Made by a program: the position numbers and the translations under genes. From a virus (lineage: Duplodnaviria; Caudoviricetes), in the IMG/VR virus record IMGVR_UViG_3300050162_000108, positions 1-26,469 of that record: a stretch of 26,469 nucleotides of DNA, one strand, 5' to 3'. Below, one piece after another: positions 20,062-26,469 of the stretch (the stretch's first letter is position 1; every line of letters begins with the position of its first letter). The notes under the pieces were generated by a model. That model saw nothing but the letters and a program-made list of their open reading frames with translations, did no database searches and had not been told where the DNA came from.

Positions 20062-20538
20062 TTACAGCGACCCCGTCCCAGTGACCATAGCGGCGTCACC
20101 ACCGCGAGCATTGACCATTGCACACCAGCGCATTTGTGCCTCCTCGCGCCCCTTGCCGGTATAGCGCCACCCGGCCCGCTTGACCTCGCGGGACACAAAT
20201 TGCCCCAGGACCATGCCGACATGCTCGGGCAAGATAGTCACGGGTCTGATCCCGATCCAGTCGCCCGACTTGTAGGCTTTATTCATTTGGGGCGAGTCGT
20301 TAGCAAGGCCGTAACGGATCAAGCGGCCTTCGACATCAGTGAGCGCCCCGACATTATTGCGGAATAGCAACACACCTTTGCTTGATGCTTCTTGGCGTAC
20401 TTGGCTGGTTACCCCCGCCTCACTTAACTTCTCGTCTGTTGGCGCACCCAGCATTACCGGCGCAAGTCGGTGCATCAGGTCTTGCAATGCGGCTGGTGGA
20501 ATGCCCCAGGCTTGCGCCCAATCGTGTAGGGGGTTCAT
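20062..20538 (-). CDS. VRR-NUC family nuclease
   Basis: True start probably ATG 20538 (ATGA overlap). SEAGV, LFRNNVG, SGDWIG, SREVKR, Q.RW...V.ARGG.A. Confidence 0.85.
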   Translation of the reverse strand: MNPLHDWAQAWGIPPAALQDLMHRLAPVMLGAPTDEKLSEAGVTSQVRQEASSKGVLLFRNNVGALTDVEGRLIRYGLANDSPQMNKAYKSGDWIGIRPVTILPEHVGMVLGQFVSREVKRAGWRYTGKGREEAQMRWCAMVNARGGDAAMVTGTGSL

Positions 20539-20900
20539 TTGCACAACTCCCGGTAACGTTGCTCGGCTTCTAGGGCCAACCGACGAAGCAGCGTAGGGTT
20601 CCCCCCTGCCCGCTCGTACGCTGCTAATTGATTTTGCCATTCGCGGAACGCGACTAATTGCCGCCAAAACCGAACCGGGGACCACGTAAAGCGCGGTCCA
20701 ACCGGAGGGTAGGCAAACAACAAACCGTCTGGACCGCACGGGCCTGATTCTGATCGAGACTCTCGGCAACTGATAACTCCGGCCATCCCCTGAACCGGGC
20801 CGGATACCAGGTCAATGCGCTCAGTCTGCCGAGCCGCCCCAAAGCACAACTGATGGTTTTTCGGCCCAACACAGTGCTTACAATCTTTGCAGTAGTTCAT
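20535..20900 (-). CDS. Hypothetical Cys-rich protein
   Basis: SD AAGGAGG. CKDCKHC...C...C...CGPDG.LF. Confidence 0.75.
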   Translation of the reverse strand: MNYCKDCKHCVGPKNHQLCFGAARQTERIDLVSGPVQGMAGVISCRESRSESGPCGPDGLLFAYPPVGPRFTWSPVRFWRQLVAFREWQNQLAAYERAGGNPTLLRRLALEAEQRYRELCK

Positions 20901-20924: not shown

Positions 20925-20953
20925 AATGTAACCTAATTTAGCGGGCAGGTCAA
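20925..20953 (-). promoter_or_regulatory. Sigma70-like promoter
   Basis: TTGACC-N17-TACATT. Confidence 0.65.
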
Positions 20954-23701
20954 GACCCCATTTGCATCTAATACCGATTGTACCTTAGCGCTCAGTGCGT
21001 CGGCCTCGGGTCGCCCCAGCGTGCGGGCGGTTGCCACATCAACACCGAAGCCAAAATAGAACCGCTTGTAGGCTTCCCGGTCGTCTCGGCCCTGGGCATT
21101 CTGCCAGCCCGCCCATAGTGCGATCATGTCGCCCAGGACCTCCTGGGCCTCTTTGCGGTCGTTATGGCGATTAGCAATAGCACGCGCTACGATATGATCA
21201 GCACCATGCGGGATGAGCGGCGCGGCCATGATGCGGTCGGCCTCCCCGCGTAGCCGCGCCAACGTTGCCGGGTCGAGTTCAAACAAATCCCCGTCCACTT
21301 CCTCGGGGCGACCGCGCCCGGCAGGCACTGGGACATAGCCACACGCCGGGCAACATGGCTCTGTGCGCGGGTAGACAAACAGGCAACCCGCTTCTATCTC
21401 GGGGTTCAGGCAAGTCCGCAAGGGCTCGGCATCGTTGGCGGCGTTGCGGGTACCGCGCTTGCGAGCATCAAGCGACCATTGCCGGGGCGCATCAGGTAAC
21501 CCGTGACGGTCTACGCAATTCCCAACATGGTCGATGATGTACGCCACTGGCTTTTCGCTAGCGGCAATGTGCGCCAGCCGTTCGGCCCGACTCATCTCGC
21601 CCCAGCGGCCCATTAGCTCCGGTGCGATCATGAGTCGGAGTGCGCGACCAAACTGTTGCACAAAAAGACCGAAAGACATGGTAGGTCGCGCAAAGCTCAC
21701 GACCTCGCAGGCCGGAACGTCCACGCCTTCGCCCAGGATGTCCACATTGACCAGTTGCAGTAGCTTGCCTGTCTCGAATTGGCGCATGGTCGTGGCGCGA
21801 TATTCGGTCGTCGATTCGCTAGAAAGTACCGCCGCCGCCACACCGTGTGCGTTGTACGCCGTTGCGATCTCCCGGGCATGATCCAGGTCCACGGCAAACG
21901 TGATACCGCGCTTGCCGGGCGCAATCCGGAGGTATGAGCCGACCACATCACCCACAATGCTAGACTTGTGCATTGCCTCGGATAGCGGCTTAGGCGAGAA
22001 GTCCCCGCCTGCGCTGGTAGCGACTTTGGACAGATCGAGATTACCAGTCGGCGGAGCAAAGATTCGGTAGTCGGTCAACATACCATCGTTGATCATGTCG
22101 CGCATACTCGGCCCAACAATCAATTCGTCAAATAGTCCATGCGAGTCAACACCCAGCCCTTTACCGTCTGCGCGCACGGGTGTTGCTGTTGCTCCCAGGA
22201 TGCGGCAATTGTCCGGCAACATCACAATGGCGCGACCCCATTTGTTGTCTGCCAAGAGATGATGACAATTGTGAACTACGACGCCGTTTGCAACATAGGT
22301 GTGGAATTCATCGACTTCAATATTGTAGACAAAACCATCATTGGTTGATCCAAGATCGTCCGATTCTTGAAACGAAACACTGTCCAGCCTATGCCAGTGA
22401 GAAATTGATCTTTCTTGGTATCTTGGGCTTGGCGGATTTTTGCACCGTGGCTCGGGCCGTCCGCTTCCACTGCGATTTTCAGTAGTACGTTTCCGCAGTC
22501 TATTTTGTAATGCGTCGGATAAAAGGAATTGTAGCCAGTCGGCACAATGGTCTGCAGACAAAATCCGTGCTGCCCCAATATTTCCAGCAACTTCAATTCT
22601 GCTTTCGTTGGTGGTTTCCCGTTGCCTCCCCTTTGTTTCGGCCGATGATGTACCGCTTGCAACGATTCCGACACTTTCCGTCGCACATCCTCCCGATGCA
22701 TCGGATTGCGCTCGGTCATGCGCTCTGATGCGTACTTGTGATTTGTTCGGGCCATCGTTTCCGAACTGATCCGGGATTTGTGTTTGGATGAGCAGTCTAG
22801 CGTGCAGTACGTCGGGTACCCTTTCTTCCAATTCGTCGCCCGATGTCCGGTCGCTTGAAATTGTCGGCCGCATTCTTTGCATGTCGCCAGGATTGATTGC
22901 TTCGGGGGCCACGTTCTCCGTGCATCTCGGTGGGCATACCCGCATTTCGGCGTGCAATACACCCTGCCCGTCTTCTTGAGCCGATAGCGCTGTGTCTCGG
23001 TCGAGTTCAGTATTTCTTTCCCGCATTGCGTGCAGTTCATGCAGCAGCACCTCATCGTCGGTTGTCAGTTTGGCGGCCTCCACCCATCCGCGTCGGGTGT
23101 AAAAAGGGTGCCCACTTGTGCAGTTTAGCACATGGTGCGCCACACACACACGAACCATTTGGGCGGGAATCGGATTCTTGAACAGGCGACGCACCTCACG
23201 CAAATGAAACGTGCCTTCCTCCTCATCGAATGCAGTAACCATGTCACCCACACGTAATGACTCGATCGCTTTCCCGTCGATTAATGTCCCTGCTGGAAAA
23301 CACTCATCGACAACGGCCATCCCCACGCTACGCAAGAACGCATCTGACTTATCGCGCCTGATTAAGGTATCCACCCCAGCCGCCGCGACAGATGCGTTCT
23401 GATCAACCCACCGTCGCCCCAGGTGCCGCATGTGCAGCGCCTCGATGCTGCGACGGGTAGCATCAGGGGCAATGATTCGATGCCGCACGCCATAGCGCCC
23501 CAACGTGAGCGACATTTGGCCGACTAGCTCCTGACGATGAGCCATGACAATGCTCGGACGGGGATAGTCGCTCACGATGTTGGCAAAGGTCGCCGTCTTG
23601 CCCGAGCCGGTTGGCAGCACAATGCACGGTGCTTTACGGCCAGCGGCCCAAGCTGCATGGACCCGCTCGCGTATCTCTTGCTGGTATGGGCGTAGCTTCA
23701 C
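20933..23701 (-). CDS. SF2 DExH-box helicase (YejH/RadD-like) precursor containing an intein
   Basis: Q motif LRPYQ, Walker A LPTGSGKT, HRQEL, DE|CHH split by the intein, ATATP.R.DG, EGVDVP, QQFGRALR, C-terminal Cys cluster. Predicted spliced length 577 aa. Confidence 0.93.
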   Translation of the reverse strand: MKLRPYQQEIRERVHAAWAAGRKAPCIVLPTGSGKTATFANIVSDYPRPSIVMAHRQELVGQMSLTLGRYGVRHRIIAPDATRRSIEALHMRHLGRRWVDQNASVAAAGVDTLIRRDKSDAFLRSVGMAVVDECFPAGTLIDGKAIESLRVGDMVTAFDEEEGTFHLREVRRLFKNPIPAQMVRVCVAHHVLNCTSGHPFYTRRGWVEAAKLTTDDEVLLHELHAMRERNTELDRDTALSAQEDGQGVLHAEMRVCPPRCTENVAPEAINPGDMQRMRPTISSDRTSGDELEERVPDVLHARLLIQTQIPDQFGNDGPNKSQVRIRAHDRAQSDASGGCATESVGIVASGTSSAETKGRQRETTNESRIEVAGNIGAARILSADHCADWLQFLLSDALQNRLRKRTTENRSGSGRPEPRCKNPPSPRYQERSISHWHRLDSVSFQESDDLGSTNDGFVYNIEVDEFHTYVANGVVVHNCHHLLADNKWGRAIVMLPDNCRILGATATPVRADGKGLGVDSHGLFDELIVGPSMRDMINDGMLTDYRIFAPPTGNLDLSKVATSAGGDFSPKPLSEAMHKSSIVGDVVGSYLRIAPGKRGITFAVDLDHAREIATAYNAHGVAAAVLSSESTTEYRATTMRQFETGKLLQLVNVDILGEGVDVPACEVVSFARPTMSFGLFVQQFGRALRLMIAPELMGRWGEMSRAERLAHIAASEKPVAYIIDHVGNCVDRHGLPDAPRQWSLDARKRGTRNAANDAEPLRTCLNPEIEAGCLFVYPRTEPCCPACGYVPVPAGRGRPEEVDGDLFELDPATLARLRGEADRIMAAPLIPHGADHIVARAIANRHNDRKEAQEVLGDMIALWAGWQNAQGRDDREAYKRFYFGFGVDVATARTLGRPEADALSAKVQSVLDANGVLTCPLN
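22268..23302 (-). mobile_element. Intein (345 aa, residues 134-478 of the helicase precursor)
   Basis: Block A CFPAGTLI, block B CTSGHPF, block F VYNIEVDEFHTYVANG, block G VVVHN followed by +1 Cys. Excision restores VVDECHH. Confidence 0.95.
22276..23040 (-). CDS. Nested out-of-frame putative homing endonuclease (Zn ribbons, NUMOD3-like helix, DUF559/Vsr-like nuclease), 254 aa
   Basis: +1 frame relative to the intein, with GAGGTG 7 nt before ATG 23040. CTQCG..YCTPKC and CKECG..YCTLDC, NPM....VRRKVSESL, PTKAE, YKID, IAVEADGPSH, D.KKD.FL...GWTVFRF.N. Confidence 0.85.
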   Translation of the reverse strand: MNCTQCGKEILNSTETQRYRLKKTGRVYCTPKCGYAHRDARRTWPPKQSILATCKECGRQFQATGHRATNWKKGYPTYCTLDCSSKHKSRISSETMARTNHKYASERMTERNPMHREDVRRKVSESLQAVHHRPKQRGGNGKPPTKAELKLLEILGQHGFCLQTIVPTGYNSFYPTHYKIDCGNVLLKIAVEADGPSHGAKIRQAQDTKKDQFLTGIGWTVFRFKNRTILDQPMMVLSTILKSMNSTPMLQTAS

Positions 23702-24033: not shown

Positions 24034-24076
24034 TTGACATGCCAGTTACTATACGTTACATTGGAATCTCAATCAA
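24034..24076. promoter_or_regulatory. Overlapping divergent promoters
   Basis: Rightward TTGACA(24034)-N17-TACATT(24057). Leftward TTGATT(24076)-N17-TATAGT(24053). Confidence 0.65.
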
Positions 24077-24835: not shown

Positions 24836-25933
24836 ATGCCCGGCGCACACGCTCGTTTTACTCCGTCGTCTCTGGGCATTCTAATGGCGTGTGCCGGTTC
24901 TCACGAACTGGGCCGCCATTATCCTGACGATGAGGATAGCCCGGCCGCCCGAGAAGGTACAGCAGCCCATGAAGTTGCGGCGGCGCTAGTGGCTACTGGG
25001 GAATTGATGCCGATCGGCACTCTTGCGGCTAACGGTGTAGAAATTACACAGGAAATGGCAGAGGGGGGACACCTATACGCGGAGCATGTTCGCTCCGTAT
25101 TGCCGAGGGGGGCCATATGTGTTGAACAGCGGGTCGAGTGTTTCAATCTACACCCGGAATGTTGGGGGACGCCTGACACGTACCTATTCGACGGTGCCGA
25201 CTTGCACGTGTTCGATTACAAGTTCGGCCACGGTTTTGTTGATGAATTCGAAAATTGGCAATTACTGGCCTATGCCACAGGTATCTGGAACGGTGCGGCG
25301 ATCCGTGACAAGTTGCATTTGCATATCGTTCAGCCGCGCAATTTCTCCCGGCGCGGGCCGGTGCGTACCTGGACACTGACGGCTCAACAGTTAGATGGCT
25401 ATGCCAGCCGGATTTCGGCGCGGCTACGAGACGTGGCGGAGGGGGGTGCCGAGATTGGGTGCGTGACGGGCCAACACTGCCACTACTGCCCGGCCCGGCG
25501 CGGTTGCGAGGCTCTAACACGGGCCGGGCAATTGGCGTGCGTCACTACCGGCGAGGCGATCCCCCTGGACCTGACGCCGGAACAGTTGGGCGTCGAGTTG
25601 GCCTATCTGCAACGGGCTGCCGAATTGCTCAAATACCGAATCGGGGGGCTGGAGGAGCAAGCCGAGGCGCTGCTTCGCGTAGGCGCACGCGTACCGGGCT
25701 ATCATTTGGTTAGTGCGCCAGGTCGAGAACGTTGGACTGCACCAGACCAAGTTGCAGCACTCGGCCAATTGTGGGGAGTGGATCTTATGAAACCTGCAGA
25801 GCCGATCACGCCTGCGCAGGCCCGCAAGAAGCTGCCCGACCCGGCAATGGTGGATACGCTGGCCACTCGCACCGCTGCGCTGGTTTTGCAGCAAGATAGT
25901 GAAAAAGAAACACGCCGTATATTCTGGGCTTGA
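24836..25933 (+). CDS. Cas4-like PD-(D/E)xK exonuclease (DUF2800-like)
   Basis: HA.F.PSS....C, EGTAAH, GTPD, DYKFG, NWQL..YA, C..C.....C Fe-S-type cluster. Confidence 0.88.
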   Translation: MPGAHARFTPSSLGILMACAGSHELGRHYPDDEDSPAAREGTAAHEVAAALVATGELMPIGTLAANGVEITQEMAEGGHLYAEHVRSVLPRGAICVEQRVECFNLHPECWGTPDTYLFDGADLHVFDYKFGHGFVDEFENWQLLAYATGIWNGAAIRDKLHLHIVQPRNFSRRGPVRTWTLTAQQLDGYASRISARLRDVAEGGAEIGCVTGQHCHYCPARRGCEALTRAGQLACVTTGEAIPLDLTPEQLGVELAYLQRAAELLKYRIGGLEEQAEALLRVGARVPGYHLVSAPGRERWTAPDQVAALGQLWGVDLMKPAEPITPAQARKKLPDPAMVDTLATRTAALVLQQDSEKETRRIFWA

Positions 25934-25992: not shown

Positions 25993-26469
25993 ATGACAAA
26001 AGAATACATCGACATCTTGACCCCCGCAGGTCGCATGGTTTACAGCAATCTTTACACCGCCCAGGTAAACAAGTCCGACGACCCGAGCAAGCCCGACCGT
26101 GAATCGTGGGGCTGCGGCATTGCAATTCCGAAGGGTGCCGAGCAACACTGGTCCCAAACTGAATGGGGCGCTAAGATTTGGAACGCGGGTCACGCGGGCT
26201 ATGCTGCCCAAGCTGATGCGCCGACATTCTCGTGGAAAGTAATCGACGGCGACAGCCAAATCCCGAACAAAGCGGGCAACGTGCCGCGTGAGCAGGAAGG
26301 ATACGCCGGTCACTGGATCGTCAATTTCTCCCAAGGCAACCCCCCGCGCATCGTCAACAAGGACGGCTCGCAATTGATCAGCGAACGCGACGCCGTGAAG
26401 CCGGGTTATTTCATCCAGGTATTTGGTAGCGTGAGTGACAATAAGTCAGCCAGCGGGCAGCCTGCCAAG
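25993..26469 (+). CDS. ssDNA-binding protein (DUF2815-like), truncated by the window edge
   Basis: Not in the track. AAGGAG SD, then MTKEYIDILTPAGRMVYSNLY...IAIPK...FSWKVIDGDS.IPNKAG..P...EGYAGHW...VKPGYFIQV. Follows the Cas4-like nuclease. Confidence 0.8.
   Translation, partial: MTKEYIDILTPAGRMVYSNLYTAQVNKSDDPSKPDRESWGCGIAIPKGAEQHWSQTEWGAKIWNAGHAGYAAQADAPTFSWKVIDGDSQIPNKAGNVPREQEGYAGHWIVNFSQGNPPRIVNKDGSQLISERDAVKPGYFIQVFGSVSDNKSASGQPAK

Follow-up and report, generated by a model that had tools for sequence, protein, structure and literature searches.

Inteins with a nuclease encoded outside their own reading frame have been described before, and the concept is already published in Gosselin 2025, Phillips 2026, and Dassa 2009. 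Gosselin, Arsenault, and Gogarten (10.1101/2025.01.02.630785) report contiguous non-canonical inteins of actinobacteriophages with the nuclease in another frame and propose that these originated by invasion from a free-standing gene. The initial annotation of the DNA discussed here had correctly mentioned such reports. The present analysis concerns a 26,469-nucleotide stretch of viral DNA (IMG/VR record IMGVR_UViG_3300050162_000108, positions 1 to 26,469; hereafter the window), in which a helicase gene contains an intein that doubles, in its middle, as the +1-frame coding sequence of a separate, conserved Vsr-like nuclease. The proposed reading, which is given a probability of about 0.84, is that protein splicing restores the helicase, and that the nuclease, made from its own start, cuts empty alleles, into which the element is then copied. 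With its terminase, portal, head, tail sheath, and primase genes (PHROGs), the window belongs to the genome of a tailed phage. Leaf-litter metagenomes contain DNA near-identical to it, and no RNA data set was listed as containing the stretch.

The helicase intein and its nested gene

The host gene (20933..23701; minus strand, as are all features below unless stated) encodes a 922-amino-acid (aa) precursor of a superfamily 2 (SF2; DExH) DNA helicase, matched by ResIII and Helicase_C in Pfam and by phrog_16. The stop-free intein of 345 aa (22268..23302) reads CFPAG...VVHN between VVDE and CHHL. The N-extein (133 aa, 23303..23701) ends in the Walker B sequence ...VVDE, and the C-extein (20933..22267) starts with CHH, which completes DECH, and has the Helicase_C domain. 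The insertion point is the conserved Walker B site, DE|CH in this helicase. Matches to PT-HINT (Pfam) and TIGR01443 are both above cutoff, and all class-1 residues are present (C1, T62-S-G-H65 in block B, H344-N345, and the Cys+1 nucleophile), which confirms the intact splicing blocks of the initial annotation. Class-3 inteins are marked by a WCT triad, comprising a block B Trp, a block F Cys, and a block G Thr. Block F of the present intein, VYNIEV, has no Cys, so this triad is absent. Splicing is predicted to leave a mature helicase of 577 aa.

The nested gene (P0002, 22276..23040) is supported by its open reading frame, a DUF559 match, substitution rates, and a structure model, and encodes a 254-aa protein with Zn fingers and a Vsr/EDxHD-type endonuclease domain. 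It is 765 nucleotides (nt) long including the TAG stop, which lies 8 nt ahead of the intein's last base, and both frames are open over this length, exactly as first annotated. In the intein frame, three parts can be distinguished. The N-terminal splicing region (aa 1-87, 23041..23302) holds Cys1 of block A and T62-S-G-H65 of block B, with the PT-HINT match at 11-96. It is followed by a stop-free spacer (aa about 88-320, 22343..23040) that is poorly conserved at the protein level, as described by recoding, substitution rates, and clade identity taken together. The C-terminal splicing region with blocks F and G (22268..22333) overlaps the nested gene at its final codons, and VYNIE of block F is read as STILK in the +1 frame. 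Only Hint and intein models matched the intein frame, and no nuclease family was matched there by Pfam or the intein models. The AlphaFold model of the intein frame, made from a single sequence, was uninformative (predicted local distance difference test score, pLDDT, 33, Hint part included), so the spacer is only presumed to be disordered.

Homologous loci

A total of 177 entries were examined (the window and L001-L176), 175 of which have a nuclease match and 152 of which are distinct; L002 was dropped as an unrelated Hint protein. The collection scans supplied the best 80 of 306 and the best 80 of 130 matches, ordered by similarity to the window protein. Because the tail of this protein derives from intein block F, the ranking may favor nested forms. 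Low-sensitivity single-protein scans of genome contigs gave no relative.

In 140 of the 152 distinct loci, no stop interrupts the frame one base upstream over the length of the nuclease match, and the nuclease is +1 and on the same strand throughout. Both intein ends were found by pattern in 123 of these (270-409 aa), and the remaining 17 reflect contig-end cuts, pattern misses, or upstream breaks. The insertion is DE|CH in 99/123. At 40% identity, the 123 exteins fall into 64 clusters, and Pfam assigned 64 queries (61 cluster representatives and 3 other pieces) to helicases of SF2 types (52) and SF1 (2) and to a terminase (1), with no match for 9. In L129, L133, and L150, the gene that carries the nested element encodes a terminase large subunit, and the insertion is at W|CEE or W|CWVEE, beside Walker B. 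The G+C content of dual-coding loci ranges from 26 to 68%. Among the carriers with names are Vibrio phages CP-T1 and K391, Pseudomonas MR14, and Corynebacterium phi673. The helicase is annotated in six records of intein-bearing phages and the nested gene in none of them, which bears out the suggestion that gene callers miss it.

Other arrangements of the same nuclease were also found. In two of the 152 loci (L149 and L159), the intein is split, with the nuclease in the +1 frame relative to both halves and the same junction geometry. These are SNF2-like helicases (L149:2498-4909, L159:1364-3598), in which the nuclease lies between the halves and overlaps them, and the N-half stops a few codons past the nuclease start. 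Ten loci have a free-standing nuclease, and seven of these adjoin a helicase-like gene as judged by eye: L073, L094, L105, L109, L120, L125, and L151 stand immediately upstream of such genes and mostly overlap them. A search for longer proteins gave six UvrD-like helicases (P0031-P0036) with the catalytic core in frame within an intein. Five of these fusions were read, and they use the same Walker B site and lack Cys4 fingers; P0031 contains another intein a few residues further on. A tree of the nuclease, built by a quick method from 145 of the 152 rows and weak in its backbone, has free-standing genes scattered among nested ones and does not give the direction of change. It is tentatively proposed, at somewhat less than even odds, that overprinting in the +1 frame is here no rare accident but the prevailing and stable arrangement, and a hub of intein evolution. 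One Walker-B-targeting nuclease lineage would then be found as a free-standing gene beside helicases, overprinted on intact inteins, as an in-frame fusion, and, with unchanged junctions, between split-intein halves.

The nested nuclease

The catalytic domain of the nested protein (22294..22617) contains E148, D181, E192, D194, H198, and D207 and was recognized by Pfam, structure comparison, and alignment. The DUF559 match has an E-value of 1.3e-11. The AlphaFold model built on a 35-row alignment has a pLDDT of 91.6. Structure comparison of residues 142-252 with VIA gave Z 12.7 to 3HRL, Z 10.9 to the catalytic domain of I-Bth0305I (3R3P; root-mean-square deviation 2.6, 93 residues aligned), and Z 9.8 to Vsr (1CW0). 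The DUF559/Vsr-like nuclease that had been read from the sequence is thus supported by both a profile and a fold. D181, E192, H198, and D207 are invariant in 152/152 loci; E192 and H198 belonged to a search pattern, and D181 and D207 lay outside the search patterns. Residue 148 is E in 40 loci and Q in 108. The spacing of D181, H198, and D207 (17 and 9) equals that of D196, H213, and D222 in I-Bth0305I (PMC3239194). The protein therefore combines a Vsr-like catalytic fold with the composite E, D, H, and D active-site residues of EDxHD enzymes. It appears to work like these enzymes, and membership is not claimed because NUMOD2 or helix-turn-helix repeats are not established and Cys4 motifs are found instead.

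The N-terminal half begins with the two CxxC...YCxxxC motifs noted in the initial annotation, both of which are present. The first (22942..23034; C3, C6, C29, and C33) rests on sequence and weak TRASH/zf-FCS-type matches, and the second (22792..22881; C54, C57, C79, and C83) on sequence and alignment. They are followed by long helices with a conserved SxRM...NPM motif and a GGNG linker (aa 81-141, 22618..22800), seen in the alignment and the structure model. The modeled helices likely bind DNA, and the two Cys4 motifs may share in this function. The NUMOD3-like helix of the initial annotation was not upheld: no Pfam NUMOD family was found in 35 members, in searches run with no NUMOD2 profile, although the model does contain long helices at 81-129. 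In the ESM Atlas, all leads for this half were below 0.9 (zf-FCS 0.87), and PHROGs has no family for the nested protein.

Selection on the two frames

When the nuclease was recoded synonymously, 9.9 stops were expected in the intein frame, and none of 20000 recodings left it stop-free. Recoding of the intein frame kept the +1 frame open in 81/20000. From these results, it can be concluded that the joint openness of the two frames is not due to chance.

The ratio of nonsynonymous to synonymous substitution rates (dN/dS) was pooled over 13 disjoint pairs with inteins 70-96% identical. In the host frame, the exteins score 0.12 and 0.15, and the N-terminal splicing region scores 0.21. Within the insert, dN/dS is 1.45 in the intein frame and 0.18 in the +1 frame, and the base that varies most, elsewhere at host codon position 3, is here at position 1. 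That a ratio exceeds 1 is a matter of arithmetic and not of positive selection. Over the final 15 codons of the overlap, the host frame is dominant (0.18 vs 0.89). In the window's 19-member clade, mean identity is 55% for the +1 protein and 29% for the spacer. Purifying selection on the +1 frame, as first predicted, is thus found in the family pairs, and the supposed lack of a nuclease in the insert agrees with these identities and with the profile searches. The data support the view that the insert is a read-through spacer, probably selected mainly for the absence of stops. A canonical intein with an in-frame homing endonuclease was also considered, and it was rejected on the lack of a nuclease family in the intein frame, the 29% conservation, and the dN/dS of 1.45.

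It is scarcely credible that the window's own nested gene is a silent remnant whose frame survives through recent decay or overlap constraint. The window does have a long end branch (0.86), and one homologue, L165, has a broken +1 frame. In the window, the catalytic residues, all eight Cys, SD (Shine-Dalgarno sequence), ATG, and stop are nevertheless intact. Free synonymous drift of the intein frame should have introduced about 4.4 stops, and the flanks contain a conversion-like tract when compared with the nearest allele. In L165:3849-4124, the nuclease frame is reduced to a 92-aa piece and the intein frame remains open; it is possibly a decaying copy.

Start signals of the nested gene

The nested ATG at 23040 is preceded at a distance of 7 nt by a Shine-Dalgarno-like GAGGTG (23048..23053), which is made by the intein's Glu-Val codons and is supported by SD statistics. 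The own SD and ATG claimed for the 254-aa frame are therefore present. An alternative in-frame ATG at 23055 would give 259 aa and was chosen by the start-picking script; the 23040 ATG is the one that bears the SD and agrees with orthologues L008 and L022. Across the family, an ATG lies within 45 codons ahead of the first CxxC in 110 of 123 loci, mostly at intein aa 80-99. The median SD pairing energy is -4.7 kcal/mol, compared with -2.2 at out-of-frame control ATGs, and values of -5 kcal/mol or lower occur at 53/110 candidate starts vs 138/908 controls. The intein's D-E-V codons spell the SD, and the Glu codon is GAG in 15/18 (8.6 expected). It is likely, judging from these signals, that the nuclease is made from its own start independently of the helicase start, which would uncouple its production from splicing as originally suggested.

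It has also been considered that the nuclease is real but is produced as a fusion of N-extein, half-intein, and nuclease by +1 frameshifting or transcript slippage from the helicase start. The shared strand and the one-base offset permit this, the SD is weak at 57/110 candidate starts, and the +1 frame is open for at least 30 codons upstream in some loci. Frameshifting is nevertheless disfavored and judged highly improbable, because a +1 stop lies within 5 codons ahead of the ATG in 36/110 loci, directly before it in 6 of these. The clustered ATGs and the enriched SD pairing point the same way, and the N-terminus is the same in free-standing relatives.

A promoter for the nested gene has only a weak lead, an extended -10-like motif, TGCTAAACT, in the block-B-proximal codons (23122..23130). 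Its A is a synonymous A in 15/19 clade members (5.0 expected), and A-rich intein positions, compared with exteins, are common. The motif also occurs in nuclease-less mini-inteins. A sigma-70 scan listed no promoter inside the intein.

Probable homing footprints and empty alleles

Empty Walker B (DE|xH) alleles were found in L177, L179-L183, L186-L189, L191, and L192. Among exteins more than 93% identical, the same site may be empty, hold a 150-aa mini-intein, or hold the nested element. Corynebacterium phages phi673 (element present) and phi674 (empty) have exteins 99.7% and 98.4% identical, with mismatches at +1 to +3 (Cys vs Val), +9, and +24. The same +1 codon change is seen in CP-T1 vs VchM-138 and in L012 vs L191. 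The Vibrio phage loci L010 and L011 share an intein of 95.8% identity within exteins of 78% and 77%, and the first C-extein codons of L011 are of the L010 type in an L189-like background. Homing is proposed because near-identical elements occur in diverged exteins, plus and minus alleles occur in near-identical genes, and flanks appear converted. Real empty alleles often have Ala, Val, Gly, or Phe at +1 and not Cys, so the natural target need not equal the ligated window sequence, which the initial annotation had taken as the target. The helicase of Vibrio phage PS65A.1 (L184:301-3432) carries a long Walker A intein in addition to a 150-aa mini-intein at Walker B.

The window's nearest helicase, L177, is also empty, with an identity near the site of 32/60 (+1 to 60) and mostly 50-59/60 beyond +180. 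Sequencing run X11 contains both the window allele and a related one, in which 1337 nt (22089..23425, unstranded) are replaced by 302 nt, exactly the loss of the intein plus 302 nt of diverged flanks. The diverged flanks would fit conversion by a donor that had itself diverged, and they would equally fit a lineage that escaped and stayed empty. No joint was seen in the low-cover runs X14-X17. The L177-type allele co-occurs with the window allele in X11 at window 21637-21664. L177:2099-4900 has an empty Walker B (DEFHH) and a different 356-aa intein, LAGLIDADG-like by eye, just ahead of a QQFGR motif.

These footprints also bear on another explanation, which is very unlikely: the nested nuclease would be expressed and selected for a role other than homing, such as interference with phage competitors or a part in DNA processing alongside the helicase, and the intein would have spread by ordinary recombination. 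The adjacency of 7/10 free-standing homologues to helicase-like genes could be read in this way, the nuclease follows the extein more closely than it follows the splicing domain, and 150-aa mini-inteins without a homing endonuclease persist at the same site. Free-standing homing endonucleases, however, also typically lie adjacent to their target genes. Further arguments against it are the precise presence and absence at one codon boundary in near-identical genes, the three pairs in which the +1 codon was converted to Cys, and the diverged exteins that hold near-identical elements.

Proposed mechanism

Under the homing reading, protein splicing would yield the 577-aa helicase with Walker B DECH, and the largely unstructured 345-aa intein would be discarded, as the intact blocks and the essential-looking gene suggest. 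Internal initiation at the ribosome-binding site and ATG within the last N-terminal codons of the intein would give a free 254-aa nuclease independently of splicing. The Zn fingers and helices would bind a long site across the Walker B codons, where the catalytic domain may cut or nick, to judge from its fold and the footprints. In mixed infection, recombinational repair would then copy the intein, the nuclease, and some flank including the Cys codon, which the footprints support.

Several findings weigh against this reading. The Foldseek search returned the same top-ranked chains as VIA with weak E-values of 5e-3 to 8e-3. The dN/dS contrast is a family-level result because the window has no close relative among the 13 pairs, and the pair L082/L118 lacks the contrast (0.53 vs 0.42). 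No ATG was found by the stated rule in 13/123 loci, the SD is weak at the 57 starts given above, and the SD and codon counts are phylogenetically non-independent. Invasion is incomplete because 3 of 9 compared Vibrio alleles are DECHH yet empty, and the -2/-1 codons at the site are used without bias. Over 92 loci, nuclease distances track the exteins (partial r 0.40) more than the splicing domains (0.23, from a segment of 80 aa only). These correlations appear to speak against a tightly coupled intein-nuclease unit over deep time.

Surroundings of the helicase gene

An endonuclease gene (phrog_93) lies at 20062-20769 (minus strand), an exonuclease gene (phrog_69) at 24836-25933 (plus strand), and a gene for a single-stranded DNA-binding protein at 25993. 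Their products could supply recombination functions for homing. The motif GTTACATT is repeated in intergenic gaps ahead of genes, at window 24034-24062 (plus), 25951 (plus), and 20932 (minus), and the copy at 24034 belongs to a promoter-like site, TTGACA-17-TACATT.

Significance

If the overprinted state is indeed such a hub, one nonsense mutation in the spacer frame would suffice to convert a nested intein into a split intein with homing intact, a direct route to natural split inteins. The separate frame would also let nuclease expression and exchange proceed independently of splicing. A whole class of putative homing nucleases is overlooked by gene callers, and inteins scored as degenerate may be mobile. 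With free, split, nested, and in-frame states in one family, phylogeny can be used to test how inteins acquire nucleases and how split inteins originate, and a homing cross is at hand with phi673 and phi674 in Corynebacterium glutamicum. The family is also a natural example of long dual coding (200-260 codons), maintained over the whole G+C range of its loci.

Comparison with known systems

The cyanobacterial dnaX intein was reportedly treated in earlier work by Gorbalenya in 1998, which Gosselin cites. According to Phillips et al. (10.64898/2026.09.14.751524), it resembles the present family in its out-of-frame nuclease with a putative SD of its own, its disordered in-frame insert, its frame-switched dN/dS, and the coexistence of empty, mini, and full alleles. 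It differs in that its nuclease is a LAGLIDADG enzyme in one cellular gene, whereas the present one is of Vsr type and occurs in 64 extein clusters on phage or metagenomic contigs. The phi673 paper mentions the intein and not the nested gene. In the literature searched, which left out preprint supplements and subscription papers, no account was found of a sense +1 Cys4-Vsr nuclease in helicase inteins, of the four states, or of a ready test pair.

The actinobacteriophage inteins of Gosselin et al. likewise have a separate-frame nuclease in an unbroken host frame, and a VSR-like/EDxHD-like nuclease matching 3R3P is among them. There, the VSR-like gene is antisense and the same-strand case is an endonuclease VII in frame 3, whereas here the nuclease is sense +1 in every nested locus listed. 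The hosts there are DNA polymerase, minor capsid, terminase, and thymidylate synthase genes, compared with helicase Walker B here. Their second ORF typically avoids the splicing domain, and the present one runs into block F and has Cys4 fingers.

I-Bth0305I and the EDxHD family (Taylor et al. 2011, PMC3239194) share the C-terminal Vsr-like domain, the matching acidic and His residues, and an N-terminal binding region; they have NUMOD2/helix-turn-helix repeats and a group I intron in place of the Cys4 fingers and NPM helix. The ShiLan insertion (Arsenault et al. 2025, PMC11855218) also combines an out-of-frame nuclease with an open host frame, but the nuclease is HNH, the host is a methylase, and there is no splicing domain. 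The fractured genes of Dassa 2009 (PMC2677866) have a same-strand Vsr-like gene between intein halves, with its 3' end overlapping the C-terminal intein part, and this type is represented in the family by L149 and L159. In the fractured genes, the host gene is split and a non-coding gap of 27-51 nt precedes the nuclease, whereas in the window the host frame is unbroken and the nuclease starts inside intein codons.

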